The position numbers and the translations under genes were made by a program. Shown here one piece after another: positions 23,687 to 43,901 of a DNA stretch of 58,949 nucleotides. The stretch comes from a virus, in IMG/VR virus record IMGVR_UViG_3300049049_000112, positions 1-58,949 of that record; one strand, 5' to 3'. Below the pieces are notes generated by a model. It was not told the origin of the DNA. It did no database searches and saw only the letters and a program-made list of their open reading frames with translations. Numbering within the stretch: the stretch's first letter is position 1; every line of letters starts with the position of its first letter.

Positions 23687-23716
23687 AAGCTACTACGATC
23701 GTAGTAGATAAGTCAA
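23687..23716 (-). promoter_or_regulatory. Early sigma70-like promoter TTGACT-N18-TAGCTT containing an 18-bp perfect palindrome
   Basis: Minus strand reads ttgact-tatctactacgatcgtag-tagctt, 18 nt before ATG 23668; palindrome ctactacgatcgtagtag at 23690..23707. Confidence 0.6.
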
Positions 23717-23717
23717 C

Positions 23718-24095
23718 TCAGAAAGGCCGCTGCGCGTTCACCAGCTTGTCGTGGTGGGCCTGCTCCCACAGCGCGGCGTCGGTGTAGTGCGGGAACTTGT
23801 GCTCCGCGTACTTGAAAGCCAGGTCGTGCTCCATGCCTACTATGTGGTGCAGCGCTTCGTGGTAGACGGTGCCGACCACCACGAAGTCAGGTACCCAGCC
23901 CCAGGCCAACGTACGGTTGACCAGGATAAGACCCTCGCAGTAGGTCGCGTAGAGAAACCCCGCGCCCGGCTTGGCGGGCTTCCAGGGCATCCACTTGATA
24001 GTAACCGGGTACTCGCTGCAGTGGCTCTCGAAGAACACGAGGTCCACGGCGTTGAGCGCTCGCTGCAGCCACGCTCGGTCCCGCAGCTCACTCAC
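23718..24095 (-). CDS. SprT/DUF45-like zinc metallopeptidase-motif protein
   Basis: 125 aa; VYHEALHHIVGMEHDLAFK (HExxH ... EH). Confidence 0.65.
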   Translation of the reverse strand: MSELRDRAWLQRALNAVDLVFFESHCSEYPVTIKWMPWKPAKPGAGFLYATYCEGLILVNRTLAWGWVPDFVVVGTVYHEALHHIVGMEHDLAFKYAEHKFPHYTDAALWEQAHHDKLVNAQRPF

Positions 24096-24270
24096 CGGGC
24101 ACCTCGCGCCCGTCAGCGTCTACGTTGACCGGCCCGCACGTAGCGAGCTTGCGCGCGTCGGCTTCAGCGAACCTCCACCGATGATCATCGCAAAATGCGC
24201 AAAGAACGCGAAATGTAGGGTACCCGCAGTCTGCGCAGGGATACCTCCCGTAGAAGTCCGGCAGGGTCAT
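24088..24270 (-). CDS. Small zinc-ribbon protein (60 aa)
   Basis: CADCG...CAFCDDH Cys pairs; ATGA overlap upstream. Confidence 0.5.
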   Translation of the reverse strand: MTLPDFYGRYPCADCGYPTFRVLCAFCDDHRWRFAEADARKLATCGPVNVDADGREVPGE

Positions 24271-24956
24271 ACGGCCTTCTTGACTAAGGCGAGCTTCGCC
24301 TTCTTCTGGGCCTGGAGCTCGTCCTGCACCTGGCTCGACTTGCCGGGGGGCGGGCGATTGTCGATCAAGATCCCGAGGGCCTCGGAGTCGAGCACGATGG
24401 CGCAGCACGCCATGACCTGCCCCAGGTTGTGCACGCCGTCCGACGAGATGCGCTCCCCGTCCAGGTAGTTGGCCAGGTGGCGCTGGGCTGCCGCAAGGTA
24501 CGTCATCGCCTCCACGGGGTCCTTCCGCCAGTTGTAGGCCCCGTACTTGGCGTCGCCCACCTCGAGGGCTGAGGCCATGTGCAGCTGCCCTACAGGCGGT
24601 ATGAGAGCCAAGTCCGGCTTGGTCGCGCCGAACGCCTTCTTGGGGTTCGGGTTCTTCGGCGCGGGCGGAGTCTCCTTTGAACAAATGTTCAGTGTCGGGT
24701 CTGAGTCGTTCAGCGCTGTCTGCATCGCAGACTTTCGGAACGACTCTTCCCGTTCGATATCGGAGAGCAGGCGGTACCACGGGTCGGCTTGCTGCCTTGC
24801 AGAGCAAGCTGAGCGAAACCAGCGGGTGGTGTCCGGGCGGAAGTACTCTAGGTTGCCGTCCAGAACGCGGTAGGTGTTCCCCTCAAAGGAGTACCTACGC
24901 TCTGGGTCTGCGGTCATTTCCTCGATTGCCTGGCTGTACGTTCGCTTGTTGCTCAT
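24267..24956 (-). CDS. Protein with C-terminal dATP/dGTP diphosphohydrolase-like domain (DUF5664-like by recollection)
   Basis: 229 aa; KPDLALIPPVGQLHMASALEVGDAKYGAYNWRK...AAAQRHLANYLDGERISSDGVHNLGQV fits the remembered family pattern. Confidence 0.55.
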   Translation of the reverse strand: MSNKRTYSQAIEEMTADPERRYSFEGNTYRVLDGNLEYFRPDTTRWFRSACSARQQADPWYRLLSDIEREESFRKSAMQTALNDSDPTLNICSKETPPAPKNPNPKKAFGATKPDLALIPPVGQLHMASALEVGDAKYGAYNWRKDPVEAMTYLAAAQRHLANYLDGERISSDGVHNLGQVMACCAIVLDSEALGILIDNRPPPGKSSQVQDELQAQKKAKLALVKKAV

Positions 24957-25279
24957 GTTAGGCTCTCCGTGTCTACTTCGACGTCTGCTAGCGAAACCCA
25001 AACATCCGACCCGTACACCTCCATGAGCACCCCCGGCACCAGGGATACGGTTTGTGTCTCTCGACCGTGATCCGAGTACCCTCCGTGAACCTTCTTGTGG
25101 GCGACGGGCAGCTGCGCCTCGTGTCCGTCGCGGAAACGCACGCGGATGGCCTTCCCCTCCTTCAGAGTCAAAGCGTCGCGCTGATAGCTGCAACAACCGT
25201 GCAGGCGTACGGTGCCGGGCTTCTCGAAGTACTCTGTGCCCCAGTCGTTTCCTTTGTTTAGTTTTACGAAGTTGCTCAC
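24953..25279 (-). CDS. Hypothetical protein (108 aa)
   Basis: Intact ORF, ATGA overlaps on both sides. Confidence 0.55.
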   Translation of the reverse strand: MSNFVKLNKGNDWGTEYFEKPGTVRLHGCCSYQRDALTLKEGKAIRVRFRDGHEAQLPVAHKKVHGGYSDHGRETQTVSLVPGVLMEVYGSDVWVSLADVEVDTESLT

Positions 25280-26622
25280 TGCATGCCTCCCCGGTAACGC
25301 CCCTTGACCAGTACTACGATCTGACGCTTGCCGTCAGCTGCTAAATGGATGTGCGCCTGAACCCAGCCTCCGGGCAAGTCGTTATACCCATGGTCTACTA
25401 CCGCTGTTACTCCTGCTTGGCAAGCGCCATCGAGCATGCCCGGCTGGTGAGAGTGGCCGATACTGACCTTGACCCCGAGCCGCGTGTATCCGATGAACGT
25501 GCCTCTACTACCGTTTGGGCCCTTATCTCCGTGGAACCCGTGCTCTACGTCCAGAAGACGCAAGCTGTCGTTCCGCTTGAGGAACTTGACGGTCTCCGGG
25601 ACCTTATGCCTGCGGGCTTCAGCCTCGAATAGGTTCAGCCACTTGCCTGCGGAAGTGCGGCTCCGCAGGTCGCGAGACTTCATCTCGTGCCAGTACGGAG
25701 CGTTGAGCGGATCTTCCGAGTCTTTGTGCTCTTCCAACCAGCGCTCGAAGTGCTCGTCGTGGTTGGATCGTACTACGTGCGTAGTATGTTTGCCCCAGCC
25801 GCTCACCAGCTTGAGCGCGTCGCAGGCGTTCCGTACCTCTTGCTCGACGCTGTCGAAGCGCCCCTCGAACCGATGGCGACTCGACTTCTTGTGGTGGGAC
25901 CTCGAGCCGAAGTCGAGTACGTCGTGCAGGACGATGTGCTGAGGGCGAACAGCGTCAATGAGCGCCTTGGTCGCATCCAGGGCTTCGAAGTCCTCGTGCC
26001 CCGCGTGCCAGTCGCCGAGCACGAGAGACATGGCCGGGGGCGCATTCTTGACCCCGTTGGGTGTGTATACTTTATCGAGATCTGTGAAGCTGCCGTCCTT
26101 GTTCGCAGTCACGTGGCGGGCGAAGTAGCAGGCGTCTTTGTCGACCTCTACCACCAGCGCCCCGATCACGTGGTGGTGCTCCCCTTTCTTGCCTGCCTTG
26201 CTGGGCGTGTAGTTGGGCACCGTGCACGCGCCCGTGGTCCACATGATGCGGGGCGAACGGCTTGCCGTAGCCACGACCTGCAGCGTGCGCTTGGCGTGGC
26301 CGAAGATGCCCGAGCACTTGCCCAGGAAGCCCTCGAAGCCGGTCAGCGGCCTGTTGGCCGTGGGCTGGATCGAGATGTCAGAGAAGATCTTCAGGTTCTT
26401 GCAGAGGCTCCTGCGCGACGTGGCGAGGTAGGGAGTGATCTCCGCAGCCCACCAGTCGTCCGTCTCTTGCTGCTGAGACCAGCGGGAGGTGGGGTTCTTA
26501 TAGCGCCCTGGCACCACGATCAGCTCGGCCCTGTTGGCCTTGCAAAAGTTCTGCATCGAAGCGAAGAACTTAGGGTTGACCGGCGAGGCATTCTGGGCGT
26601 AGGTGACCAGGTACGTTTTCAT
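25276..26622 (-). CDS. Calcineurin-like metallophosphoesterase with an uncharacterised N-terminal half
   Basis: 448 aa; LGDWHAGHED, HIVLHDVLD, VRSNHDEHF, GFHGDKG, IGHSHQPG motifs. Confidence 0.7.
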   Translation of the reverse strand: MKTYLVTYAQNASPVNPKFFASMQNFCKANRAELIVVPGRYKNPTSRWSQQQETDDWWAAEITPYLATSRRSLCKNLKIFSDISIQPTANRPLTGFEGFLGKCSGIFGHAKRTLQVVATASRSPRIMWTTGACTVPNYTPSKAGKKGEHHHVIGALVVEVDKDACYFARHVTANKDGSFTDLDKVYTPNGVKNAPPAMSLVLGDWHAGHEDFEALDATKALIDAVRPQHIVLHDVLDFGSRSHHKKSSRHRFEGRFDSVEQEVRNACDALKLVSGWGKHTTHVVRSNHDEHFERWLEEHKDSEDPLNAPYWHEMKSRDLRSRTSAGKWLNLFEAEARRHKVPETVKFLKRNDSLRLLDVEHGFHGDKGPNGSRGTFIGYTRLGVKVSIGHSHQPGMLDGACQAGVTAVVDHGYNDLPGGWVQAHIHLAADGKRQIVVLVKGRYRGGMQ

Positions 26623-26807
26623 AAAAACTCGCCGTATTTAGCCTCGAACCTGTCAGAACACGCAACGCTGCAGAACAGCACCCGCCTCAGCACCGGCTCG
26701 CAGCACTCACCGCAAACGAACTCCTCGTTAGGGTCTACGTCTTGCTCGAACAGCGGGCGAATGGCCTTGAACCAAGCAGTCTTTAGTCGCCTGTACGCGC
26801 CTCTCAT
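26619..26807 (-). CDS. Small Cys-rich (zinc-binding-like) protein (62 aa)
   Basis: CGECCEP...CSVAC; coupled overlaps. Confidence 0.5.
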   Translation of the reverse strand: MRGAYRRLKTAWFKAIRPLFEQDVDPNEEFVCGECCEPVLRRVLFCSVACSDRFEAKYGEFL

Positions 26808-27280
26808 CGAATCCCACCGCCCTCGACGAACTTAGCGTTTGGGTACCGAGCGCTAAGCTTCTCGTAGTTCGCCTGGGCGATCTGCATCAGATCCTTGCCG
26901 GTCACGTCCTGGAGGCGCATCGCACTGCTGAGTAAGAGCCCGCTCAGCAGCTCTGAGTCCAGGTCTTTGCCGTGCCACAGCGCCTTCTTCACGTGGTCAC
27001 AGATGCGCGCCACGTTCGTGCTCAGGGGTAGGTTGTTGGGCTCGCCCCTCGCCTCGACGGCCACACCTTCGCAAGTGAGCGCCCACACCAGTGCAGTGTG
27101 GTACCAGAGGACGTCTCCTGCCTCGAGAAGAGCCTCTTGGAGAGTGCCGGTGAGTAGCGCCTCCTCGAGCTCGCCCGTCTCGCCAGCGAGGCCCAGGCAG
27201 ATGCACGCAAGCGGCATCCTTACGCCGTCCTTGTGCGCTAGCTGGATGACGAAATCTGCGTAGATTTCGGGCGTAATCAT
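26804..27280 (-). CDS. mazG: MazG-like nucleoside triphosphate pyrophosphohydrolase
   Basis: 158 aa from ATG 27280; LGLAGETGELEEAL...EAGDVLWY all-alpha NTP-PPase motifs. Confidence 0.75.
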   Translation of the reverse strand: MITPEIYADFVIQLAHKDGVRMPLACICLGLAGETGELEEALLTGTLQEALLEAGDVLWYHTALVWALTCEGVAVEARGEPNNLPLSTNVARICDHVKKALWHGKDLDSELLSGLLLSSAMRLQDVTGKDLMQIAQANYEKLSARYPNAKFVEGGGIR

Positions 27281-27621
27281 ACTACTGCCTCTTGGGCCAG
27301 GGCGCCCTGCTTGATCGCGTGGCGGACCTTGCGACGGATGCCCTCGTACATCGTTTCGTAGTTGGTGGGTAGTAGGCCAGCGCCGGAAACGGTCGTGCCG
27401 CGGACGTACAGGCTCTCGTGGTACTGGTCCATCGAGCGGGGAGTAGCAACGTAGTGCCCGCAGATCTTGAGTAGTGACGAGACGATCGCCTGCCCGGCCC
27501 ACATCTTCTGCTGGATCGCCTTGCGACGGCGCATCACTTCCTTGACCGGGTTCGGGTGCTTGTTTCCCGCAATACGCGTATCTGTGGCTTGGCGTCGCGC
27601 CAGCTTACGTCGAGCAGACAT
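27277..27621 (-). CDS. Hypothetical basic protein (114 aa)
   Basis: ATG 27621 preceded by gggggag; upstream part of track ORF 27277..27744 rejected. Confidence 0.55.
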   Translation of the reverse strand: MSARRKLARRQATDTRIAGNKHPNPVKEVMRRRKAIQQKMWAGQAIVSSLLKICGHYVATPRSMDQYHESLYVRGTTVSGAGLLPTNYETMYEGIRRKVRHAIKQGALAQEAVV

Positions 27622-27706
27622 CTTAGTACTCCCCCAGAGTTTATGAAGTGAGGCGCCCAGGCAGCCTTTTCGCGGCCGAGCGTTGCAGTTCTCGTTTCCT
27701 AGGCGC

Positions 27707-27775
27707 CTCAAGCAGCACACCGACTGCTGTCTACGGGCTCTCATTTGTGGAGAGCCAGTCGGTGTGCTGCTTGAG
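27707..27775. promoter_or_regulatory. 20-bp perfect inverted repeat with nested hairpin in the early operon
   Basis: ctcaagcagcacaccgactg (27707-27726) pairs with cagtcggtgtgctgcttgag (27756-27775); loop contains gctctc/gagagc; flanked by gaggcgcc/ggcgcctc and ctaccc-gaa-gggtag. Confidence 0.6.
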
Positions 27776-27809
27776 AAACCCTACCCGAAGGGTAGCGGAA
27801 ATCTCCGGA

Positions 27810-28529
27810 CTACCGACCCAACATCTTCTTCAGATCGTCTACGTGCACCGGGTCCTGGGTGTCGTCTTCCTCGTTCCAGAAGTAGTTCGGGTCTTCAGGG
27901 TGAACTTTCCAGGGATGTGGAGGGAACGGGGCGGAAGGCGATCGACGAACGCTGGGGGCAGCCGGAGGAGCCTTCGGCGTCGCCTTCGCTTCGAAGGGCG
28001 CTGGCTTGGTCTCCGGCAGCTCGACGGGAGCGAAGCCGGCAGGAATCTCGCCCTTCCAGGCAGAGACCGGGTACACCTCGAGGTAGCTCGTGGGGCCGTT
28101 CTTGCCCACGTAGGCCACGGACTTGATCACGACCAAGCGGCCAGCGAGGGGCGAGACAGGGCGCTGTGAGATGGCCTTTTCGTAGGCCTCCTGGTTGACC
28201 GTCGAAGCGTTGCTCCGAGGGTGCCCGAAGCATGCCGCTACCGCGACCTGGATCTTCCCGATGTCCTTCGCTTTCGCCTGAGCGGGCGTCACGCCCTTGC
28301 CACCGCGGGCTTCGTCCGGGCACACCGAGTACGCCACTTCATATCCTGCCGGGATACCGCTCTCGGGAGCGGGCGAGATGATCTTGCCGTCGAGAAAGAA
28401 GCGAGGGGCATTGAAGCCGTCGGCCTTCCAGCGGAGATTCAGTACCTCTGTGAGGTAGTCTCCCGCAGGGAGCTTGTAGTTCCTGTTGTAGTTCCCGCCG
28501 ACCTTCGCTTCGCTCATGGAGATAGACAT
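27810..28529 (-). CDS. Hypothetical protein, possible OB-fold ssDNA-binding protein (DUF669-like)
   Basis: 239 aa; N-terminal KLPAGDYLTEVLNLRWKADG pattern; Pro/Ala-rich linker and acidic tail; function uncertain. Confidence 0.4.
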   Translation of the reverse strand: MSISMSEAKVGGNYNRNYKLPAGDYLTEVLNLRWKADGFNAPRFFLDGKIISPAPESGIPAGYEVAYSVCPDEARGGKGVTPAQAKAKDIGKIQVAVAACFGHPRSNASTVNQEAYEKAISQRPVSPLAGRLVVIKSVAYVGKNGPTSYLEVYPVSAWKGEIPAGFAPVELPETKPAPFEAKATPKAPPAAPSVRRSPSAPFPPHPWKVHPEDPNYFWNEEDDTQDPVHVDDLKKMLGR

Positions 28530-28586
28530 TTGAGTGCTTCCTTTTGTGTGCGTGGATGACTTCAGTGCTGAGTTGCTACTATCCCA

Positions 28587-28805
28587 CTACTCTTCGTCTG
28601 CGTCAAGCTTTCCGCTCGAAAGTTTGATGGCCGTGTCCAGAGCTTGTGACATGGCGTCGTCTTCGCTGTGGGTCATGACCTCGGTGACACGATGGATGAT
28701 CTCTCCCATCGAGCGCACCGTTACTACGACCTTCACCTCGACGGTGCTGTCCTGATACCCAAGCGCCACGTCCCGAACCAGCTCGTCGTACTGTACTGCA
28801 ATCAT
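28587..28805 (-). CDS. Hypothetical protein (72 aa)
   Basis: ATG 28805 preceded by aggggggaa; longer track ORF start rejected. Confidence 0.5.
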   Translation of the reverse strand: MIAVQYDELVRDVALGYQDSTVEVKVVVTVRSMGEIIHRVTEVMTHSEDDAMSQALDTAIKLSSGKLDADEE

Positions 28806-28871
28806 TGGTTCCCCCCTGTAGTTCTCAAGCTCGCATGGCCCTAAGGTTAGGGCAAACAGAAACGTCAAAAG

Positions 28872-30779: not shown

Positions 30780-30782
30780 CAG

Positions 30783-32665: not shown

Positions 32666-33555
32666 TTGACCTTACCTTTCCACTCGTCGACCACCGCCCT
32701 GAGCTCGTCGCGCTCCTTCGAAACAGCCACGATCTCCGCAGCCACCTCGCGCACGCCCGCCAGCACTGACTGGAGGTGCACTAGCAAGTAGCGACAGGCG
32801 ACAGCGGGGGACTCTTGGGACATGCTTGCGAGCAGCCAGCCGCCATACCGCCGCTCCCCATCCCCATCCCCATCCGCCACAGGCAGCACAGACGACGCGT
32901 CGGGCTCGCTCGGTTCGCGCCTGCACGCTGACACGGCCCACACCACCCAGTGGGGCTCGCCGTCTATGTCTACACGGACGTGGTCGGGGTCGCCATCGTG
33001 GAGGCCGAGCACCTTCCCAACGCGCCCCGTGCCCATGTTGCGGACGCGCTCTCCTACTGCGATGGGGTCGACGCTTATAGCCTTGCACGGTTCTATAAGC
33101 TTACTATCAGCGTGGGCGGGCTCGGGCGGGAGGCGGGTGACGTACTCGGCCAGGATGGCGTACCTATTGTCGAGGTCGATCCATCCGTCGCTCAGTAACG
33201 CTGTGACGACATGCTCGTTGCCGCCAGTGCGCGTGCGGACTCTATCGCCCACCGCGATCGGCGCCTCAACCTTACTGTCGTCGAGTTCTGCAATCCGCGC
33301 GACAAGATCATCACGGGCGTCGTAAGACTCCCCGATCTTCCTGTCCCGGTCCGACACCTCCTTTTCCAAGTCGGCCACGAGCTCGTTTGCGGTGATGAGC
33401 TGCTGCCGCAGCTCCGCAATCTCGCGCTCGTCATCGCGCAGGCGCCGGGCGGCTTCATGGCACGTGGTAAGCGCCTCTAGCGTCGCGCAGCCTCGGGATT
33501 TTGCGAGTAGCAAGTCCGCCAACTCCTGGCGCGATAGCTTCGTAAGGTCGGTCAT
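32662..33555 (-). CDS. Hypothetical protein with coiled coil and two SH3/KOW-like repeats
   Basis: 297 aa; repeated VGDRVRTRTGGNEHVV / VGERVRNMGTGRVGKV segments. Confidence 0.55.
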   Translation of the reverse strand: MTDLTKLSRQELADLLLAKSRGCATLEALTTCHEAARRLRDDEREIAELRQQLITANELVADLEKEVSDRDRKIGESYDARDDLVARIAELDDSKVEAPIAVGDRVRTRTGGNEHVVTALLSDGWIDLDNRYAILAEYVTRLPPEPAHADSKLIEPCKAISVDPIAVGERVRNMGTGRVGKVLGLHDGDPDHVRVDIDGEPHWVVWAVSACRREPSEPDASSVLPVADGDGDGERRYGGWLLASMSQESPAVACRYLLVHLQSVLAGVREVAAEIVAVSKERDELRAVVDEWKGKVK

Positions 33556-33701
33556 CGTGGGCTCCGTAGGAGGCTTCGGGCTTCCGGTGAAAGGGGAGGT
33601 ATGGCGCGCAGTGTGCGAAAACCTGGAGGCATCTCAAGGCCTCTGATGTTACCGCCGAACACCAGGGCGAGCTGGGCGTTGATTTCGTCTAGAGAGTTCA
33701 T
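33552..33701 (-). CDS. Small hypothetical protein (49 aa), leaderless start
   Basis: ATG 33701 lies 7 nt after the -10 of a TTGACT-N17-GAGTGT promoter. Confidence 0.45.
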   Translation of the reverse strand: MNSLDEINAQLALVFGGNIRGLEMPPGFRTLRAIPPLSPEARSLLRSPR

Positions 33702-33708
33702 ACTCACG

Positions 33709-33737
33709 ACACTCTCATTTCCTACTACCAGAGTCAA
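33709..33737 (-). promoter_or_regulatory. Early sigma70-like promoter TTGACT-N17-GAGTGT
   Basis: Minus strand reads ttgact-ctggtagtaggaaatga-gagtgt-cgtgagt-ATG. Confidence 0.5.
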
Positions 33738-33738: not shown

Positions 33739-34359
33739 TTATTTGTCGTAGCGGGATCGGGATACTCTCTCTGCGATCCAGTCGCCGACCTTCATTCCGT
33801 TGGGTAGTACGGCCTCGTGGTTCGGGATGGCGAAGAAGACAGCCGAGACCTGCGTCGTTTCGCTCGGTAGTACGGAATGCTTCGTGGCCGGCCCCGTGCC
33901 GAGGATCTCGGTTATCTCACCGAGATGACATTGCTCGTTCAGTTTACGTACGCTCGGAGGTATGTGGTCCCGACCGTCGTGCACGAACTTGTCTGGTTGA
34001 TTGCGATACAACATGAGGGTGAACAGGTTGAAATCGGTGTGCTCGTGAGAACCTGCGCCGGGTGGGTACTCAAGTACCCGGAGTGCGCAGTGCTCGTAGG
34101 ACGGAGCGTAGTAGTGATGCACCAGCCGACTGCCAACCCGGCACGCGAGATTGAAGGCTTGTTGGTAGAAGGACCTAAGCCGCACCCGCTCCAGTTCTCC
34201 GGGGTGTCGGTACTTAGGGGCAACGTGAGCGTAGCGCTTCTCCGTGTCCACCTTGCCGTCTCCGTTTGGTGACTCGACGATCGTGGGGCGGTACCCTGGG
34301 TACTGCGGCTGGAAGACTATGTTCCGAAGGGTGCTCATCTCGTCTTCGGTGAACATCAC
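33739..34359 (-). CDS. 2-oxoglutarate/Fe(II)-dependent oxygenase
   Basis: 206 aa; HxD (SHEHTDFNLFTL) and distal His (ATKHSV) in an IPNS/ACCO-like arrangement. Confidence 0.7.
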   Translation of the reverse strand: MMFTEDEMSTLRNIVFQPQYPGYRPTIVESPNGDGKVDTEKRYAHVAPKYRHPGELERVRLRSFYQQAFNLACRVGSRLVHHYYAPSYEHCALRVLEYPPGAGSHEHTDFNLFTLMLYRNQPDKFVHDGRDHIPPSVRKLNEQCHLGEITEILGTGPATKHSVLPSETTQVSAVFFAIPNHEAVLPNGMKVGDWIAERVSRSRYDK

Positions 34360-34568: not shown

Positions 34569-34675
34569 CGACGGCGTTCAACCGTCACCTTGTTACCGAT
34601 TCCGCAGACCAGCATAAAAGAAGCGAGCGCGTACACTGCGGCATGTACGGCCAGGACTTGAAAGTTGCGCTTCAT
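34553..34675 (-). CDS. Mini-ORF, 40-aa lipobox peptide
   Basis: MKRNFQVLAVHAAVYALASFMLVCGIGNKVTVERRRWSTT, translated base by base; ATGA overlaps at both ends. Confidence 0.4.
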   Translation of the reverse strand: MKRNFQVLAVHAAVYALASFMLVCGIGNKVTVERRRWSTT

Positions 34676-35151
34676 GGCGACACGTCGAGCAAGGCTGTCG
34701 CCTCCCCCTCTGCCCCTCCTCGCCAAACGAGCTCGTGGGCGTGGGCCGCATCGAAGATGTCCGGCAGCCTCCCGAGCTTAGTGCAGTGCGTGAGGTAGTG
34801 CAGCGTCTCGTGCACTACCAGTCCGTCGTCCTCGTGGTAGCCCGGCGCGATGTGAATCACGTACGACCGTTCGCTGAGTAGGCCGCTCATCTTCGAGCGG
34901 GTGCAGCCCGCCGTGCGTTTTGCCTTCTCTTTGTAGAACGCAGGAAAACCACGCGAGCAGGCGTTCGCGTAGCTGTTCAGGCTGCTGTGGCGCACGACCT
35001 CGAGCGGGCTGCAGCTTCCCGTACCCGGCAGGCCCTGGTCTTCCCAGGCCTCCTCTGTGAGCGCAACAGTCCGCGCGTCGTGCTCGCTGAGCTCCGGGCG
35101 CGCACAGCCCACCAGTAACAGAACCAACCCCACCGCTTTGTTGAACGTCAT
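34672..35151 (-). CDS. Lipoprotein with HExxH zinc-peptidase-like motif
   Basis: 159 aa from ATG 35151 (AGGAGG SD); signal/lipobox MTFNKAVGLVLLLVGC; VVHETLHYLTH. Confidence 0.65.
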   Translation of the reverse strand: MTFNKAVGLVLLLVGCARPELSEHDARTVALTEEAWEDQGLPGTGSCSPLEVVRHSSLNSYANACSRGFPAFYKEKAKRTAGCTRSKMSGLLSERSYVIHIAPGYHEDDGLVVHETLHYLTHCTKLGRLPDIFDAAHAHELVWRGGAEGEATALLDVSP

Positions 35152-35168
35152 CGCAACCTCCTGAAGCG

Positions 35169-35198
35169 AGACTACGATCGTAGTATCTCGTGAGTCAA
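35169..35198 (-). promoter_or_regulatory. Early sigma70-like promoter TTGACT-N18-TAGTCT with ACTACGATCGTAGT palindrome
   Basis: Minus strand reads ttgact-cacgagatactacgatcg-tagtct, 17 nt (with AGGAGG) before ATG 35151; palindrome at 35171..35184. Confidence 0.6.
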
Positions 35199-35236
35199 AT
35201 AAAAACGGCTGGGTACCGTGCAAGATACCCAGCCGT
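35199..35236 (-). terminator. Rho-independent terminator after the primase/helicase gene
   Basis: Minus strand: acggctgggta-loop-tacccagccgt followed by TTTTTATTT. Confidence 0.7.
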
Positions 35237-35287
35237 CAGGAGGAGAAGCAGTATGACGCAACCGAACACTGAGAGCTTACTACGATT

Positions 35288-38152: not shown

Positions 38153-38228
38153 GAGTTACCACGATCTCAGTAAGAGCTTGACCGCTACTACGATCTATGA
38201 GAGCGTGGGAGTAACAAAGGAGAGCGAC

Positions 38229-38396: not shown

Positions 38397-38557
38397 TTAC
38401 GATCTACGCCTTCTCCGCGTTCATTGCCGCTATGAGCTGGATCTCCCTGCTCGCGGGCGGGGCGGAGCCTAGGCTACTGTCGAAGCTCGCGCTCGGGCTG
38501 CTGTTCGGCGTGAGCGGTGTAGTAGGTTTGATTTACGAAGCGTGGAGGGCACTATGA
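38393..38557 (+). CDS. Small two-TM membrane protein (54 aa)
   Basis: VITIYAFSAFIAAMSWISLLAGG...LALGLLFGVSGVVGLIY; GTGA overlap. Confidence 0.5.
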   Translation: MITIYAFSAFIAAMSWISLLAGGAEPRLLSKLALGLLFGVSGVVGLIYEAWRAL

Positions 38558-38877
38558 GAGTAGACATGAAGCGCTGTTGGGCCCACGGCCCGCACACCGG
38601 AACGACTTGCCTGGCTTGCTCTGAGCAGCGGGCTGTGGCGAGCAGGGAAGCCCTTATGGCGCCCAAGCTCCCGCCTACTGTGACTGGCAGGTTCGTCGCG
38701 GAGCCCGCCCACAAGCGGCTGACGATGACTCCGACCGTGTACGTCGAGGCCGTTGCCGGCATCCCTGCCGCCCACCTTGACCGCTGGGCAGGCTACTGCA
38801 ACGTGGCGCGGGCGCGAGGCGAGACGGACGCGCAACTACGGCAGCGACTGGCAGCCGACTACGCATCGAAGTATTGA
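38554..38877 (+). CDS. Hypothetical protein (107 aa) with N-terminal Cys/His cluster
   Basis: ATGA overlap; CWAHGPHTGTTCLAC. Confidence 0.5.
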   Translation: MRVDMKRCWAHGPHTGTTCLACSEQRAVASREALMAPKLPPTVTGRFVAEPAHKRLTMTPTVYVEAVAGIPAAHLDRWAGYCNVARARGETDAQLRQRLAADYASKY

Positions 38878-38909
38878 GAATCATTCGGAGCTCCCCTCAA
38901 GATCACGCG

Positions 38910-38971
38910 GAGCTCCCTCGATCAAAAACTCGAAAACGTTTAGAGCTCCCTCGATCAAAAACTCGAAAACG
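38910..38971. repeat. 29-bp direct repeat x2 (gagctccctcgatcaaaaactcgaaaacg), 4-nt spacer
   Basis: Copies at 38910-38938 and 38943-38971; GAGCTCCC box also at 38888 and 38976; gatcaaaac/gttttgatc inverted pair. Confidence 0.9.
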
Positions 38972-39000
38972 CCCGGAGCTCCCTGTTTTGATCAGGCAGG

Positions 39001-39067
39001 CCCACATCCACCCACATCCACCCACATCCACCCACATCCACCCACATCCACCCACATCCACCCACAT
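39001..39067. repeat. Perfect 10-bp tandem repeat cccacatcca x6.7
   Basis: Six identical 10-nt blocks plus cccacat, read directly from the listing. Confidence 0.95.
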
Positions 39068-39078
39068 GTAGGTATTCT

Positions 39079-39175
39079 GCGCAGTAGCACCTACCTGTAG
39101 TTATACCGAGTAGAATGATTACACTTCCCTACTCAGCCCGACATGTAGTTATACCGCGCAGTAGCACCTACCTGT
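39079..39175. repeat. Permuted repeat pair X-Y ... Y-X
   Basis: X = gcgcagtagcacctacctgt (39079-39098, 39156-39175); Y = tgtagttataccg (39096-39108, 39144-39156). Confidence 0.9.
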
Positions 39176-39178
39176 GGG

Positions 39179-39290
39179 TGGCCCGATTCTTGCAAGGGCG
39201 CTCTGTGCGCAAGCTAGGCGGCACGATCCTTGCAAAGGACGGTGTGCGCTGATGTCAGTGGCCCGATTCTTGCAAGGACAGCTGTAGGTC
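39179..39290. repeat. About 40-bp period repeat x2.5 centred on the palindromic core CTTGCAAG
   Basis: tggcccgattcttgcaagg at 39179 and 39259 (80 bp apart); variant gcacgatccttgcaaagg at about 39221; each followed by (c/g)tgtgcgc in the first two units. Confidence 0.85.
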
Positions 39291-39467
39291 TATCTCTGCT
39301 TTCCAGTCCGGCCGCATACCCGTGCGATCCTTGCGCACACCTTCCTTCCAGACAGTCTTGCCGGACCGTAGACACACAAGAGACCATGCCTCGTAGGTTT
39401 CGCTCTCTCCGCGCACATCAGGGTACATGTATACGCGTTCGCTGCCTTCGGTGTGAATCTTATACAC
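39255..39467 (-). CDS. Hypothetical protein (70 aa)
   Basis: GTG 39467 overlaps the stop of the upstream 43-aa ORF (GTGTATAA); 3' end overlaps the third 40-bp repeat unit. Confidence 0.45.
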   Translation of the reverse strand: MYKIHTEGSERVYMYPDVRGESETYEAWSLVCLRSGKTVWKEGVRKDRTGMRPDWKAEIDLQLSLQESGH

Positions 39468-39591
39468 GGCTTGCCTCCCATTCGCGCACTAGCGCTTCAC
39501 TGTACTCGCGTTCTACTCTAGACAGCACAGACCGGCGGCAACCGCGCGATGCGAGGTAGCGGAACATCTCGAGTAACTCTTGGCTCGTCAT
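39460..39591 (-). CDS. Small hypothetical protein (43 aa), first gene of a leftward pair
   Basis: MTSQELLEMFRYLASRGCRRSVLSRVEREYSEALVREWEASRV; divergent from 39758; below the track cut-off. Confidence 0.4.
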   Translation of the reverse strand: MTSQELLEMFRYLASRGCRRSVLSRVEREYSEALVREWEASRV

Positions 39592-39719
39592 ATTTATATT
39601 AGACGCGATCTTGAGCCTTCCGTCAATACCCTATTACTACGATCTGCAGGCCCCGACGAAAGCGACGCGAGGTAGTAAAAGAGTAGTGGCGCGCGGGTGC
39701 TGGGCATGAGAGGATATCT

Positions 39720-39748
39720 GAGTAGGACGCAATCGGCACTCGAAAGGA
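39720..39748 (+). promoter_or_regulatory. Conserved 5' leader box, copy 1 (gagtaggacgcaatcggcactcgaaagga)
   Basis: Identical apart from one extra g to 41371..41398; ends 9 nt before ATG 39758; contains GCACTC and an AAAGGA SD. Confidence 0.6.
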
Positions 39749-39757
39749 CGGCATTCA

Positions 39758-40141
39758 ATGAAGCTCTCGCATACGCTCTCACCTGACTCTAAACTAGAAC
39801 GACATGTAGCCCAGTGGGTGCGCGATAGAGCGCGCAACGGTTACGATGGCAACGTTGCCGCGGTATTCAAGGATCTAATGCACGGTGGGTGTTCATCCGG
39901 CATTGTCGGACACTTAATCTACAACGTCGATTGCGAGCGCTTCTTTCGCACACACCGTAAGGAAATAGGCGCGATGCTAGGCAACCTCTTACGTGAGGCT
40001 TGCCTTGACTTGAGCGGACATAGCGTGTGGGATGAAACGGACCCTCTCGCACTAGAGACACCAAACCAAGTGTTTCTCGCACACCTTGGTTTTGAAGAAG
40101 CCGCGCGCGCCTTGGCAGACAGGGCCGGGATCGACGTATGA
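39758..40141 (+). CDS. Hypothetical protein (127 aa) with GGCSSGIVGHLIY motif
   Basis: First of four ATGA-coupled genes; lower-GC island. Confidence 0.6.
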   Translation: MKLSHTLSPDSKLERHVAQWVRDRARNGYDGNVAAVFKDLMHGGCSSGIVGHLIYNVDCERFFRTHRKEIGAMLGNLLREACLDLSGHSVWDETDPLALETPNQVFLAHLGFEEAARALADRAGIDV

Positions 40142-40356
40142 CACAGTCAGAATGGGAGAAACTACCATGGGACACCTTGCGTTTCCCGCGCGCCGTACTT
40201 TCGCCTCAGAAAGCAGCGTACGTACTCCGCGCACATGGCCTGACCTGCAGACTACCTAAGCCGGGGTGGGTGATAAACCTCGGGCAAGGTCGCGCGTTAG
40301 AAAACGAAGGTGGCGCGTACCGCGCTTACAATGCGACACAAGAGGGGTGGATATGA
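40138..40356 (+). CDS. Hypothetical protein (72 aa)
   Basis: ATGA overlaps at both ends. Confidence 0.55.
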   Translation: MTQSEWEKLPWDTLRFPRAVLSPQKAAYVLRAHGLTCRLPKPGWVINLGQGRALENEGGAYRAYNATQEGWI

Positions 40357-40556
40357 CGTCCCGGCGCATCGTGCTCCTAACGTGCGTCTCTGGACTTGTG
40401 TGTATCGCTGTCGCGTGTGGTCCGGTTGACGACGTACCTAAGCCGAACGGCGCACATGTAAACCAAACCCAGATAATGCTCGAGAAATGCAAGCGTGTAG
40501 GATCAGGTAAGCCCTGGGTCGAATGTTTCAACGCTAATTGGAGGGTAAGCGAATGA
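40353..40556 (+). CDS. Small lipoprotein (67 aa)
   Basis: MTSRRIVLLTCVSGLVCIAVACG signal peptide plus lipobox; ATGA overlaps. Confidence 0.6.
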   Translation: MTSRRIVLLTCVSGLVCIAVACGPVDDVPKPNGAHVNQTQIMLEKCKRVGSGKPWVECFNANWRVSE

Positions 40557-41146
40557 CACACACCGAAACCTTCACACTCACAGTTGCTCAAATGTGCGCC
40601 GATATTGACGGATGGAACGATCGTGATCTCTTGGAAGGCATGGGGCAAGATGAGGCGCTCGCCATTCTCGCCGACGGGACTCTAGTGCGTGCTGTCGGGG
40701 GCCCAGCCTTCGGTAGTTTCAAACTTTCACCTCGACAGCACGAGCATGCGCACGCTCTAGCCCTGTCCAATGCCGCGGAGTCCCGCGGTATCCTAGTGGC
40801 GAACGACAATGCAGGCATGGGCCAGACATGCTGGCTTCTGTGGTTTGGCGCCTACGGTAGCACCAAGGTGCTCGCATGGGGCTCATTGGAAGATGCGTTA
40901 GAGGACGCCGCACGTGTCTTACATGAGGGGCACTTTTCCGACTTGTCAGAAGAGTACGAATATGCGCTTGCGGAACTAGTCAAGGGTGGTGCAGACCCTA
41001 CGGATGAAAGTGTCATGCAGAAGGCGCAAGAAACCGCGGAAACCGACATGACCTACACTGAGAGAGGTTACCTCGCATCGGGGGAGTGGGGCTACTCGAT
41101 CGAGAATCCCACGCTTGCCGATATTCTTGAGTTACCCGAAAAGTAA
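40553..41146 (+). CDS. Hypothetical acidic protein (197 aa)
   Basis: ATGA-coupled last gene of the 39758 operon. Confidence 0.6.
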   Translation: MTHTETFTLTVAQMCADIDGWNDRDLLEGMGQDEALAILADGTLVRAVGGPAFGSFKLSPRQHEHAHALALSNAAESRGILVANDNAGMGQTCWLLWFGAYGSTKVLAWGSLEDALEDAARVLHEGHFSDLSEEYEYALAELVKGGADPTDESVMQKAQETAETDMTYTERGYLASGEWGYSIENPTLADILELPEK

Positions 41147-41370
41147 TACTTGCCTTTCCGAGATCGCCTCTGTGAGGCCCATCAAGGCGCTACTACCCCG
41201 TGAGGCTAGGGTAGTTCGTACTTTCCGTTTACTGACGGCCAGCGAGTTTTGTATCACGAAAGCACTGTAAAACGAGCGCTCTCGATACCCTCGATACCGC
41301 TTGCAAAGTACGCGCCGGAATAAGGTCAAAATAGTAGTACCATCCGACTACGATTCATGCGATTCTAAAT

Positions 41371-41398
41371 GAGTAGACGCAATCGGCACTCGAAAGGA
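41371..41398 (+). promoter_or_regulatory. Conserved 5' leader box, copy 2 (gagtagacgcaatcggcactcgaaagga)
   Basis: Ends 7 nt before ATG 41406; a related gcactcacgaaagg box lies before ATG 42142. Confidence 0.6.
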
Positions 41399-41405
41399 AC
41401 TCACA

Positions 41406-41558
41406 ATGCCTACCGCAATCTTGAAGCCCGCACACGAAGTCGCCCTCCTGCTCACCATGCGCCGCGCGAAGTCTGAAAAAGGCGCTCAGGTCCAGGCCGC
41501 TGTCTTGTTCCGAGTCGAAGTTGGCATGTGGATCAATGAAGCCCTGAAGGGAGCCTGA
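41406..41558 (+). CDS. Small hypothetical protein (50 aa)
   Basis: SD AAAGGA in the conserved leader; below the track cut-off. Confidence 0.45.
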   Translation: MPTAILKPAHEVALLLTMRRAKSEKGAQVQAAVLFRVEVGMWINEALKGA

Positions 41559-41560
41559 TC

Positions 41561-41797
41561 ATGTATCCCTTCCCGAAAAACAACTCTGATTACCGTGTCT
41601 CTTTTCAGGCCAAGTTTGATGCATGCCGTATCAGTAGCGTTGCGTTCTGTCTAAACTCATACCTGACGCACGATGGAGCAGCGGCGCGCGCTTGGCTGAA
41701 AAACGCGGTAGATGCGGCCGGCTCAATCTACCACCCTGAGATCAGGGCACGTGCGTTCGCTCTAGTGTTTGCTGCAAAAGAGGTTGTCAATGGATAA
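41561..41797 (+). CDS. Hypothetical protein (78 aa)
   Basis: ATG 2 nt after the upstream stop. Confidence 0.5.
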   Translation: MYPFPKNNSDYRVSFQAKFDACRISSVAFCLNSYLTHDGAAARAWLKNAVDAAGSIYHPEIRARAFALVFAAKEVVNG

Positions 41798-41820
41798 GCG
41801 TCAAGAAAACATCACCTTGA

Positions 41821-42075
41821 TTGGGACGTGGGGAATGGACGCTGACGGCTACTGTCGGCCTGGCCTTGATCTCGTTCCGCAACGCGTGCCGCAACCCTCG
41901 GATCGATGAAGAGTACAATCAACCTACGCCCGAACATGCCCTTGCGTGGGCCGCCAGAGAGCAGCAAGCCAGCGCTTGGTGGGCTAGTATCGGCGACACC
42001 TTTCACTCACAGATCTGTGACGATGCGGCGCATGCGTTCCGCCAACTGGCAACGAAACTGCACGATCTAGGTTGA
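41821..42075 (+). CDS. Hypothetical protein (84 aa, TTG start; weak)
   Basis: Only long ORF here; a 39-aa ATG ORF in another frame (from 41790) competes with it. Confidence 0.35.
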   Translation: MGRGEWTLTATVGLALISFRNACRNPRIDEEYNQPTPEHALAWAAREQQASAWWASIGDTFHSQICDDAAHAFRQLATKLHDLG

Positions 42076-42141
42076 CGTTACTCTCTGGCTACTGTACTCT
42101 TTTCTTACGCTCTCAACTGCACTCACGAAAGGCACTCCCAA

Positions 42142-42591
42142 ATGTCCACGTATATCGTCGCCAACGTTTCCAAGATGTTCGCTGAAACCGATCCACGTCA
42201 AGTGTCAGGATCGCAAGCTGAGTTAGGTTCGCTAGCCGGCAAGATCGCTTGGGCGAACGCTATGGAGATTTCGGAGGATCAGCCACCCGCTTGGCTTGTC
42301 TCCGATGCGCCTGAAGCGCTTGCGGGCATCCGAGAATGGGCGGGCGAGTTCGGCGCATGGGACGATGAAGAGATCGCCGCATGGTCCGCCCAGGAATGTT
42401 TCGCTCTATTCGCTCAGCAGATCGCTCACGAAATGCGCATGCTCGGATCTGACGATTGCGAGGATATCGCGGATCTTGCGGAAGTTTATGATTCGACCGA
42501 TTGGGATAGTGAGTCTGAGTATCCTACCGGATCCTACTATCTCGAGAACGCCGATCTCACTGTCCAGTTTTATACCGGCTGCCTAGACTAG
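42142..42591 (+). CDS. Strongly acidic hypothetical protein (149 aa)
   Basis: About 30 Asp/Glu versus about 5 Lys/Arg by my count; own leader with gcactcacgaaagg. Confidence 0.6.
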   Translation: MSTYIVANVSKMFAETDPRQVSGSQAELGSLAGKIAWANAMEISEDQPPAWLVSDAPEALAGIREWAGEFGAWDDEEIAAWSAQECFALFAQQIAHEMRMLGSDDCEDIADLAEVYDSTDWDSESEYPTGSYYLENADLTVQFYTGCLD

Positions 42592-42628
42592 GCACGGGTC
42601 TTTCTGGGCAAGGCCCATGCCAGCTTTG

Positions 42629-42837
42629 TCAGCAAAACCCATGCCAACCTGCCAAGGGCGCAAGCATGAGTGCATGCACATAGAGACATGCTTGGCACAC
42701 CGCTTGCCTAGTTTACAACCGCTTTACACGACCCGCTTGCTCTACGTTGTCGCACACTTGGCGCACAAACCTCACCTAACTCGGAGCCTTCTTTACAACC
42801 GCTTTACAGCCCTCTTCTCAGCAAAACCCATGCCAAC
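42629..42837. repeat. Interleaved direct repeats: a 20-mer x2 and a 17-mer x2
   Basis: tcagcaaaacccatgccaac at 42629 and 42818 (each followed by aagcatg-n-gtgcatg); tttacaaccgctttaca at 42712 and 42792. Confidence 0.9.
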
Positions 42838-42927
42838 TTGTCAACCCAGAAAGCATGTGTGCATGTAGTGTAGTGCAACGTATGGTCATGACCATATGAC
42901 ACCAATGTCATGCAAGCCCACCTGCAC

Positions 42928-42969
42928 CACGACAACGGAGTCATAGCCCACGACAACGGAGTCATAGCC
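42928..42969. repeat. 21-bp iteron-like tandem pair (cacgacaacggagtcatagcc x2)
   Basis: Perfect tandem, followed by cacacaggtcagagct. Confidence 0.9.
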
Positions 42970-43049
42970 CACACAGGTCAGAGCTGGCACAGACTGGCAC
43001 ACCTTGCCTACCTTGCACACCTCTGCTACACAGCGCACCTTGCCTACAC

Positions 43050-43091
43050 CACGACACAGATGTCATAGCCCACGACAACGGAGTCATAGCC
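43050..43091. repeat. Second 21-bp iteron-like tandem pair (variant copy plus perfect copy)
   Basis: cacgacacagatgtcatagcc then cacgacaacggagtcatagcc, followed by cacaggtcagagct; caccttgcctac x2 (43000, 43036) lies between the two pairs. Confidence 0.9.
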
Positions 43092-43199
43092 CACAGGTCA
43101 GAGCTCTCGCCTACTTGCGCACATGTAAACCGAGACCCACACCGGGGTACCTTGTGTGCAAGGCTCGCTGGGTTGGGCTGCCCCTCGGCCCGCTGGGAA

Positions 43200-43246
43200 A
43201 TATTTTTTGAAAAACGAAGGCCTCGGCTCATATTTTTTGAAAAACG
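43200..43246. repeat. AT-rich 17-mer x2 (atattttttgaaaaacg), 30 bp apart
   Basis: Most AT-rich spot I noticed in this GC-rich genome; each copy is followed by (a/g)ggcctcg. Confidence 0.9.
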
Positions 43247-43699
43247 GGGCCTCGAGCGGCGATTCCAGATTCCGAAAGCCGGAACGTAGCAAACTCGATA
43301 CCCTAGCCAGCGGGCTGAGCTGAAGTTCGTAGTCTCGCTGGGAGGCGCTAGAAGGCCCTGACCGAGGCCAAGACGTCCGCACCTAGCGACCCCCTACGGG
43401 GAATCGATTCTAGACCCCGCCACGGAGCGGGAATCACCATCCTCGCCCTCCCTTGGCGGTGAGGCATGCGGTAGTAGCGCCGTAGTCGCCTTCGGCTTAT
43501 CCCTACACAACGTGGTGCCAGCGGAGGAGGTCGAAAACATCAGGTACTGAAGGAAGAGGGCTGGCTGAATGCAGCGCTGGCTCAGCGATAGTCTTCAGCA
43601 ACCGCCTTCGGCATCTGGTGTGGTGCTCCGTCTATAAGAGAAAGGGCGAAGCCGATACACTAATCACGCGCGCATGCGCTTGCTCTCCGCCCTCCTTTT

Positions 43700-43857
43700 T
43701 CACCGGAGCTGCAAGCTTGCTTAGCAGGCCAGTAGTACGCCGCGCGCATGAATATATGCGCTCCGTCCTCCCATATTCATGCGCAGGTACGCCTGGTCTC
43801 CGTTGTCCCTCATCACCGGAGCTGCAAGCTTGCTTAGCAGGCCAGTAGTACGCCGCG
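43700..43857. repeat. 45-bp perfect direct repeat x2 flanking a 12-bp inverted repeat
   Basis: tcaccggagctgcaagcttgcttagcaggccagtagtacgccgcg at 43700-43744 and 43813-43857; gcgcatgaatat (43744) / atattcatgcgc (43783). Confidence 0.9.
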
Positions 43858-43872
43858 ACGCGTGATATATGG

Positions 43873-43901
43873 TTGACTACGAACGTAGTACCGGGTAGTG
43901 T
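43873..43901 (+). promoter_or_regulatory. Sigma70-like promoter TTGACT-N17-TAGTGT with ACTACGAACGTAGT palindrome
   Basis: Followed by AAGGAG and ATG 43920. Confidence 0.6.

Follow-up and report, generated by a model that had tools for sequence, protein, structure and literature searches.

Phage genome and its palindrome

The 58,949-base virus record IMGVR_UViG_3300049049_000112 of IMG/VR (the whole stretch analysed here, referred to as the window) has a G+C content of 61%, looks like a complete temperate tailed-phage genome and carries four copies of the inverted repeat, or dyad, ACTACG-NN-CGTAGT, three of them at predicted promoters. A plus-strand block that runs from 43920 to the end and on from position 1 to 17250 holds the structural, packaging and lysis genes (small and large terminase subunits, an HNH protein, portal, a Mu-F-like protein, cement, capsid, tail sheath, baseplate and lysis genes). 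The minus-strand block (17396-38116) encodes a tyrosine integrase, an excisionase (Xis), DNA ligase, PolA, a metallophosphoesterase, a helicase, a PF18909 dATP/dGTP diphosphohydrolase, a PD-(D/E)XK nuclease, a 2OG-Fe(II) oxygenase and a 942-amino-acid primase-like protein. The interval at 38.1-43.9 kb has a lower G+C content, small genes and repeat arrays. Coordinates of all features are collected in Table 1.

The dyad occurs exactly four times, starting at 23692 (site 1), 35171 (site 2), 43876 (site 3) and 25772 (site 4), and nowhere else in the genome. The first-pass annotation of this DNA had listed these copies, and its coordinates and sequences are correct, including the 18-bp extension of site 1 and the AA centre of site 3. 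That annotation had also proposed a count against a Markov background, which gives an expectation of 0.002-0.02 copies (orders 1 to 5, trained on the genome itself) versus the four observed, and the dyad did not appear in any of 100 dinucleotide-preserving shuffles. ACTAC faces GTAGT at a gap of 4 nucleotides (nt) only and at no other gap within 0-12, and allowing up to two mismatches in the dyad yielded eight matches versus approximately 1.9 expected and added nothing convincing. Three of the four copies are intergenic, although intergenic DNA makes up 12.6% of the genome. The motif is real and non-random, and it is almost certainly regulatory. Its 6-bp arms are identical in all four copies and the centres differ (AT, TG, AT and AA in genome order), a combination that points to sequence-specific recognition rather than to a hairpin.

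Dyads at predicted promoters

Each intergenic copy overlaps a predicted promoter of the form TTGACT-N17/18-TAGnnT, as the first-pass annotation had proposed, and the distance from the -10 element to the ATG is in each case 18 or 19 nt. At the PolA-block promoter (P23716) 19 nt separate the -10 from the ATG at 23668, which is preceded by a GAGGAG Shine-Dalgarno sequence. At the lipoprotein-block promoter (P35198), which directly follows the terminator of the primase gene, and at the promoter of the operon headed by the gene at 43920 (P43873), the corresponding distances to the ATGs at 35151 and 43920 are 18 nt. A Shine-Dalgarno sequence stands in front of the ATG at all three promoters. The product of 34672-35151 starts with MTFNKAVGLVLLLVGC and contains a lipobox, in keeping with its earlier description as a lipoprotein.

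The position of the dyad relative to the -35 element differs at each promoter, again as first described: at site 1 it starts 5 nt past the -35, at site 2 the interval is 8 nt, and at site 3 it lies on this element. The dyad is thereby centred at approximately -19, -15.5 and -26, respectively, relative to the predicted promoters. Because these centres differ by non-integral numbers of helical turns and all fall within the core promoter, their placement fits occlusion and not face-dependent activation, and a dyad superimposed on a core promoter is the arrangement seen in classic repression by occlusion. MerR-type sites have a dyad centred in a 19-20-bp spacer, whereas the spacers here are 17-18 bp and the dyad offset varies by promoter.

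A scan for TTGAC-N16-19-TAnnnT returned nine matches, and the location of nearly all of them at gene boundaries argues that this is a host-type promoter form. TTGAC/TANNNT resembles the promoter pattern of high-G+C Gram-positive bacteria. A scan with the E. coli consensus misses all three dyad-bearing promoters because their -10 elements are of the form TAGnnT. Promoters of the same class (TTGAC-N17-TAnnnT) at 6813, 42072 and 47520 have no dyad, and yet the one at 47520 has the segment cgggTAG(G/T)GTtgct in common with P43873. The existence of such promoters indicates that the dyad is an add-on placed over selected core promoters and is not a polymerase contact. The fourth TTGACT promoter of the first-pass annotation (33709..33737) does have a single GTAGTA and no dyad, and two copies of it occur in a relative (L014, introduced below), but its -10 is GAGTGT, which corrects that annotation. 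An open reading frame (ORF) of approximately 49 amino acids at 33552-33701 on the minus strand begins 7 nt past this -10.

Conservation of the dyads in relatives

A near-identity search found no DNA-level match among 50,697 GenBank phages, and PolA is at most 27% identical to that of any GenBank phage. The same phage recurs at 98.6% identity or more in several metagenomes of the JGI and SRA collections, and informative relatives were found in metagenomes and metagenome-assembled genomes (MAGs) only. L010 and L014 belong to one NCBI MAG, GCA_030154745.1, as its contigs JALYEH010000029 and JALYEH010003707, with PolA 73% and primase 69% identical. L017 is a 7.8-kb sequence recovered with a primase profile; its primase is 77% identical and it covers the equivalent of 38.1-44.3 kb. 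A more distant shell at approximately 50-58% identity consists of L011, L013, L015, L016 and L026-L029. IMG/VR scans by PolA yielded no relatives, a scan of JGI contigs with TerL gave no match, and a primase-family profile found no prophage relative in 185,579 GTDB species genomes. The phage lineage is previously undescribed and known from metagenomes only.

The region behind the primase gene has a common layout in the phage, L014, L015, L027 and L028, namely a terminator, TTTTTAT, a -35, a spacer, a Shine-Dalgarno sequence and an ATG. Within this layout, site 2 is represented in L014 by TACTACGATCGTGGT, which retains 13 of 14 bases at the same place with the -35, the left part of the spacer and the -10 all changed. 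The L015 spacer holds a different perfect 12-bp palindrome, CGCAGATCTGCG, as would be expected where an operator and its repressor switch specificity together. At site 3 the alignable stretch shared with L017 runs only from TTGACT to TAGTGTTGC, the upstream intergenic DNA being unalignable, and the differences within this block are the four central dyad bases and one other base. The L017 promoter retains TTGACTAC....GTAGTA.CGGGTAGTGTTGC, so that the ACTAC and GTAGT arms are kept around a TGCG centre, and ACTAC-N4-GTAGT occurs only once in the 7.8 kb of L017, at this promoter. In the two closest relatives the dyads are thus partly conserved at orthologous positions whose intergenic surroundings have diverged, which gives their proposed function partial support. 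The more distant relatives have no dyads.

Site 4 lies inside the metallophosphoesterase gene, as first reported (the product matches the metallo-phosphoesterase family phrog_221), with no promoter nearby. Here the dyad is written in the codons CAT ACT ACG CAC GTA GTA (HTTHVV), which are rare in this genome (ACT, 12% of Thr codons; GTA, 18% of Val; CAT, 14% of His), and the probability of the combination is approximately 2e-4 under the genome's codon usage. The L010 orthologue has the identical 14-mer at the same codons. Across this gene 58% of synonymous codons are identical between L010 and the phage, and identical runs of 20-23 nt occur elsewhere in it. We therefore rejected the L010 copy as independent proof of selection; the codon-usage argument remains. 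In relatives of 53-58% identity the Val-Val pair is encoded by GTC GTG or GTG GTG and there is no dyad, and L011 and L029, also without a dyad, use common codons for the neighbouring residues.

The GTAGTA hexamer, half-sites and late promoters

The arms of the dyad belong to a wider pattern. GTAGTA/TACTAC is the most over-represented intergenic hexamer, with 34 of its 72 copies in the intergenic 12.6% of the genome (p = 8e-13) and 34 observed versus 3.1 expected from the intergenic dinucleotide background (z = 17.7); the intergenic enrichment that had been noticed by eye is borne out. Its density is 1.1-1.7 per kb in the phage, L010, L014 and L017 and only 0.1-0.6 per kb, about background, in L011, L013, L015, L016 and L026-L029. 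The presence of dyads and hexamer enrichment in the same lineage is what a lineage-specific binding protein would produce. The hexamer falls into sub-classes, namely GATC-GTAGTA (operator arms and half-sites), GTAGTATCG (upstream of four late promoters) and GTAGTAGC, and neither orientation clearly predominates with respect to the downstream gene. The dyad is probably the tightest-binding form of a broader recognition unit, and the system probably extends beyond an operator at early promoters.

Of the two half-sites proposed earlier, the copy at 38185 is exact, but that at 39634 has one mismatch. L017 conserves the block around the 38185 copy as TTGAC(C/G)GCTACTACGATCT(A/G)TGAGAGCGT.

A second promoter class, an extended -10 of the form cGTGCTAYYCT (TGCTA-NNN-T) with no -35, was seen before approximately 16 structural-block genes. 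For nine or more of these an ATG or GTG lies 5-7 nt past the hexamer, which is a leaderless geometry (for example, site 7691 with a start at 7707, 12006 with 12021, 14987 with 15001, 56001 with 56015 and 58387 with 58402), and the same motif and geometry occur in L010 at 16786-16818 and 20095-20176 on the minus strand. The motif could alternatively be a start-associated translation signal. The 18-bp string GTAGTATCG-NN-CGTGCTA is present in four exact copies (3686-3703, 4302-4319, 51802-51819 and 58374-58391), where the expectation is 0.35 even with three mismatches allowed. This arrangement sets the GTAGTA box exactly 10 nt upstream of four late -10 elements, and the GTAGTATCG box could be an activator box.

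The hexamer recurs in three further arrangements. The opposite order, GTAGTA-CGT-TACTAC, is found at 20872-20889, where it overlaps a promoter-like TTGACG-N17-TAGTAG upstream of the leftward genes at approximately 20.7-20.8 kb. Between two late genes, at 54687-54727, lies a terminator-like long inverted repeat (TACTACACCCTGTCGA-N6-TCGACAGGGTGTAGTA) with a T-rich tail, its stem capped by TACTAC/GTAGTA hexamers. Upstream of the site-3 promoter a direct repeat of approximately 40 bp (...gcttagcaggccaGTAGTAcgccgcg) at 43700-43745 and 43813-43858 places extra GTAGTA boxes approximately 28 and 140 bp upstream of the -35.

Proposed mechanism and candidate binding proteins

From sequence and position we infer that the TTGACT/TAGnnT pairs are active promoters, that a protein binds the dyads and that this binding represses. 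With moderate confidence, the best-supported reading of the dyad (as TACTAC-N4-GTAGTA) is a high-affinity operator of a dimeric, most probably phage-encoded repressor that would occlude RNA polymerase. Such a sequence-specific dimer would occupy the dyads at the three sigma-A/sigma-70-type promoters P23716, P35198 and P43873 and, since each dyad falls on one of the two promoter elements (-35 and -10) or in the spacer separating them, would exclude RNA polymerase when bound. Three units would then be off together: the block comprising PolA, ligase and the integrase-proximal genes, the lipoprotein block and the 43920-headed operon. The intragenic dyad would be an auxiliary site, a roadblock or a looping anchor, and other early control regions would have weaker sites in the form of single arms (38185, 39634 and 33723). 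This is in essence the interpretation of the first-pass annotation, which is partly supported: it fits the core-promoter positions, the arms, the relatives and the rare codons, but no binder could be assigned and the PolA-block promoter of L010 lacks the dyad.

Several observations weigh against repression of this kind. Promoters and gene starts alike are predicted. Each promoter has a single dyad, with no second copy nearby at up to two mismatches and no tandem operators. The L010 analogue of the site-1 promoter (TTGACG-N18-TAGTCT at 8053) has only GTAGTAG and a downstream CGTAGT, such that the dyad is not universal even in the closest relative, and the conservation of site 4 in L010 is not significant alone given the comparably long identical runs in that gene. 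Pfam, PHROGs and NCBIfam scans of the ORFs tested found no CI/Cro/XRE (HTH_3)-type or LexA-like repressor, which agrees with the earlier remark that no CI-like repressor is evident. Moreover, since GTAGTA, with 34 intergenic copies, greatly outnumbers the dyads and also flanks late promoters, its reader may not be a simple repressor.

The most plausible candidate binder, though an orphan, is the product of 43920-44348. A single-sequence AlphaFold model gives it an extended helix at the C-terminus (residues 101-140), compatible with a dimerising coiled coil, and its L017 orthologue is 41% identical and conserves the C-terminus ANDxINHLFMR. Because a dyad lies on the -35 of its own gene, this protein would be autoregulated if it were the binder. 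It has no matches in PDB or PHROGs and no similarity to the phage's Xis. Other features of the protein count against its assignment, and with it against the repressor reading: the N-terminal winged helix-turn-helix match is below threshold (PF21531, E = 9e-5, 22.8 bits vs a cut-off of 27.1), the AlphaFold model has a pLDDT (predicted local distance difference test) of 48 and is unusable beyond the C-terminal helix, word-based and exhaustive HMMER searches, of 5.8 billion proteins and of 1.8 billion representative proteins, returned only the protein itself, and the putative recognition helix is divergent in L017 while the DNA arms are the same. That the 43920 product is the binder, and is then autoregulated, is a tentative and somewhat doubtful proposition. 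A second candidate, encoded at 44698-45066, has a weak ribbon-helix-helix match below the cut-off.

Alternative explanations

The reach of the hexamer raises the possibility that a GTAGTA-reading phage factor organises transcription broadly, with the dyads as its tightest sites, and acts as a programme switch rather than a plain repressor; the same protein at single boxes by the -35-less late promoters would activate them in the manner of a MotA box or time their expression. The rank of the hexamer, its lineage-specific enrichment and the fixed 10-nt placement of GTAGTATCG-NN-C at four late promoters speak for such a factor, as do GTAGTA copies just downstream of the -10 at 6322, 50795 and 52928 and the GTAGTAG kept in the 33737-type spacer in the phage and both L014 copies. 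Nevertheless, we regard it as rather unlikely: GTAGTA shifts from promoter to promoter with respect to the -10 (-28, -26, -23, -15 and +1), there is no clear orientation bias (approximately 21 sense vs 14 antisense), many copies may be just part of -10-like strings (TAGTAG, TAGTAT), and no activator candidate was found. It is also unlikely, in our estimate, that one GTAGTA-reader runs the whole transcription programme of the lineage. Were it so, the dimer on the dyads would shut the sigma-A-type early promoters, the intragenic site would block elongation like a palindromic stoperator, single boxes at approximately -25 or +1 of the approximately 16 -35-less, mostly leaderless late promoters would switch on or time the late genes, and the tightest sites might in addition respond to Dam methylation at their central GATC.

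Short arms around a 4-bp centre are typical of LexA-like boxes, and the dyad might instead be the box of a borrowed host regulator, such as an SOS-type repressor as in Bacillus phage GIL01. To our knowledge, however, it matches no LexA consensus, and the Xanthomonadales LexA box TTAGTA-N4-TACTAA has its arms in the opposite order. A host regulator would suit a temperate phage with integrase and Xis and yet no CI-like repressor in any scan, and GIL01 offers the precedent (PMC4551915, PMC6182141). The absence of a prophage relative from the GTDB species genomes and an enrichment of GTAGTA across phage intergenic DNA that is unexpected for a host box both make this quite improbable. Methylation-sensitive promoter elements, in which the Dam-family state of GATC-centred sites would set promoter strength or repressor affinity, seem more doubtful still. 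The adenine methyltransferase gene noted at the outset is real and of the Dam family, two dyads and the half-sites at 38185, 39634 and 25312 read ACTACGATC, and GATC is found in the post-primase promoter spacer of all five phages compared, with differing flanks (CGATCG in the phage and in L014, AGATCT in L015, TGATCG in L027 and TGATCA in L028). But only two of the four dyads contain GATC (the other centres are GTGC and GAAC), the L017 site-3 centre is TGCG, and GATC is neither over- nor under-represented (297 vs 285 expected genome-wide) and not intergenically enriched (22 of 297). Finally, it is highly improbable that the dyads are RNA hairpins acting as processing or stability signals in read-through transcripts, or passive remnants of a duplicated promoter cassette. 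Sites 1 and 4 do lie inside long leftward transcription units and each can form a 5-7-bp stem, but these stems are weak (-7 to -9 kcal/mol) and no better than those of shuffled sequence (z -0.3 to -1.5), for which we rejected the hairpin. The arm sequence is conserved without compensatory change and matches no Rfam family, and the different dyad offsets and unrelated flanks at the three promoters indicate that they are not copies of one cassette.

Other features of the genome

Non-coding tandem arrays are present at 38908-39067, 39178-39279 and 42600-43300, with units of 33 bp (x2.3), 10 bp (CCCACATCCA, x6.7) and 40 bp (x2.5) in addition to 24-, 21- and 18-bp units, and the equivalent region of L017 contains a 20-bp palindrome, ACATGTAGGCGCCTACATGT, twice (4541 and 4573). 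The arrays and the L017 palindromes are candidate origin iterons or partition sites. The genes at 39758 and 41406 have near-identical leaders of approximately 30 nt, GAGTAG(G)ACGCAATCGGCACTCGAAAGGA (39715-39757 and 41365-41405). Two small minus-strand genes, at 18558-18773 and 33552-33701, are absent from the output of a self-trained ORF caller.

Besides the PF18909 diphosphohydrolase and the Dam-family methyltransferase, the phage encodes a 2OG-Fe(II) oxygenase and a MazG-like domain, and this set suggests nucleotide-pool manipulation or DNA modification. The relatives conserve PF18909. Reading its gene as a sign of a Z-genome (PurZ) is unsupported, with no PurA- or PurZ-like match in the ORFs scanned. 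A tRNA-like GGTTCGATCC stretch beside the integrase gene was considered as a clue to the host and rejected, its single match, in Paenibacillus, being outside tRNA genes and attributable to chance. Three IMG/VR matches to the 16-mer were likewise dismissed as chance, being in AT-rich unrelated contigs. ARAGORN and Rfam gave no match, and a full-text literature search for the core sequence returned nothing relevant.

Table 1. Positions in the window of the dyads, promoters, genes and other elements described in the text (nt, nucleotides; aa, amino acids).
Feature	Position	Strand	Description
Dyad site 1	23692-23705		ACTACGATCGTAGT; 18-bp perfect palindrome ctactacgatcgtagtag = CTACTACGATCGTAGTAG at 23690-23707; in PolA-block promoter spacer
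Dyad site 2	35171-35184		ACTACGATCGTAGT; 35171-35185 = ACTACGATCGTAGTA; overlaps -10 of lipoprotein-block promoter
Dyad site 3	43876-43889		ACTACGAACGTAGT; 43876-43890 = ACTACGAACGTAGTA; overlaps last three bases of -35
Dyad site 4	25772-25785		ACTACGTGCGTAGT; extended, 25771-25786 = TACTACGTGCGTAGTA; inside metallophosphoesterase gene
PolA-block promoter P23716	23687..23716	-	Predicted; -35 TTGACT (23716-23711), 18-nt spacer, -10 TAGCTT (23692-23687)
Lipoprotein-block promoter P35198	35169..35198	-	Predicted; -35 TTGACT (35198-35193), 18-nt spacer, -10 TAGTCT (35174-35169)
43920-operon promoter P43873	43873..43901	+	Predicted; -35 TTGACT, 17-nt spacer, -10 TAGTGT
Fourth TTGACT promoter	33709..33737	-	TTGACT-ctg-GTAGTAG-N7-GAGTGT; ATG 7 nt on (leaderless geometry)
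Intrinsic terminator of primase transcript	35204..35237	-	14-bp stem, then T run; just upstream of site-2 promoter
Half-site, exact	38185-38195		CTACTACGATC; in spacer of 38178..38206 block
Divergent early region	38178..38206	+	TTGACC-gc-TACTACGATC-tatga-GAGCGT; block conserved in L017
Half-site, one mismatch	39634..39644		TTACTACGATC; 8 nt upstream of leftward TTGACG-N19-TAATAT promoter-like site
Post-primase promoter regions	35152-35287 (phage)		L014 3623-3763; L015 12907-13020; L027 3026-3200; L028 12871-13007
cGTGCTAYYCT sites	3699, 4315, 6322, 6995, 7691, 12006, 13161, 14987, 49537, 50795, 51815, 52928, 53993, 56001, 57718, 58387	+	Extended -10, no -35
Metallophosphoesterase gene	25276-26622	-	448 aa; matches phrog_1745 and metallo-phosphoesterase phrog_221
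Best candidate binder	43920-44348	+	142 aa; first gene behind site 3
Second candidate binder	44698-45066	+	Weak ribbon-helix-helix match PF07878, E = 4e-4, below cut-off
Tyrosine integrase	17396-18571	-	
Xis, excisionase-like	18558-18773	-	HTH_17, PF12728, E = 3e-7; beside integrase, unannotated
Dam-family N6-adenine DNA methyltransferase	54749-55333	+	PF05869, E = 3e-13; NPPY motif
Nucleotide-pool/modification genes	24267-24956, 26804-27280, 33739-34356, 54749-55333		

Comparison with known systems and significance

Like the lambdoid switches of the 434 and P22 type, the present sites are 14-18-bp dyads with invariant arms and variable centres that lie on the -35 and -10 elements of early promoters in a temperate phage, and one of them is on the promoter of a candidate DNA-binding-protein gene, suggesting autoregulation. 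Unlike those switches, the phage has no tandem operator triplets, no divergent repressor/cro pair and no detected HTH_3/XRE or LexA-like repressor, and its sites are scattered over 20 kb with one of them intragenic. Scattered sites are a feature of the stoperators of Cluster A mycobacteriophages (L5 gp71, TipsytheTRex), at which the repressor binds genome-wide, including within transcription units and genes, and this makes a roadblock role for the intragenic dyad possible. Stoperators, however, are asymmetric 13-bp sites, bound by a monomer, present in approximately 20-30 or more copies and oriented with transcription (PMC9283540, PMC6550527), whereas the present sites are perfectly palindromic, which precludes any orientation, and number only four full copies.

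The 17-bp dyad TGTTCGG-NNN-CCGAACA of Cluster O mycobacteriophages is similarly a lineage-specific inverted repeat, constant in its arms but not at its centre, that is intergenic, occasionally intragenic, and has no assigned binder. It is present in more than 30 copies per genome and is not tied to SigA core promoters (PMC4351075), in contrast to the four copies found here, three of them inside core promoters. In GIL01, with its LexA/gp7 control, the host LexA holds the lytic promoters and there is no CI-like protein (PMC4551915, PMC6182141). The likeness to that temperate phage lies in the palindromic boxes on lytic promoters and in the failure to find a CI-like repressor; the GIL01 boxes, however, match the SOS consensus of the host, and the present dyads fit no known SOS consensus. 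The MotA-box middle promoters of T4 resemble only the late motif, in which a conserved box (GTAGTATCG) stands upstream of a good -10 with no -35. No MotA or AsiA homologues were found here, and the box is at approximately -28 to -20 rather than at -30. By these comparisons the dyad, which lacks defining features of each of the lambdoid, stoperator, Cluster O and MerR types, would be best described as a phage operator with a cognate regulator.

The dyads are not expected to alter the general understanding of phage switches. Within this lineage the palindrome would mark three co-regulated operons, and the dyads, together with the early (TTGAC/TAGnnT) and leaderless late (cGTGCTAYYCT) promoters, offer an initial map of the regulatory code of the phage that can be put to the test. 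They are also a starting point in the search for its missing immunity repressor, and if the orphan 43920 protein does bind them, it would define a new repressor family.

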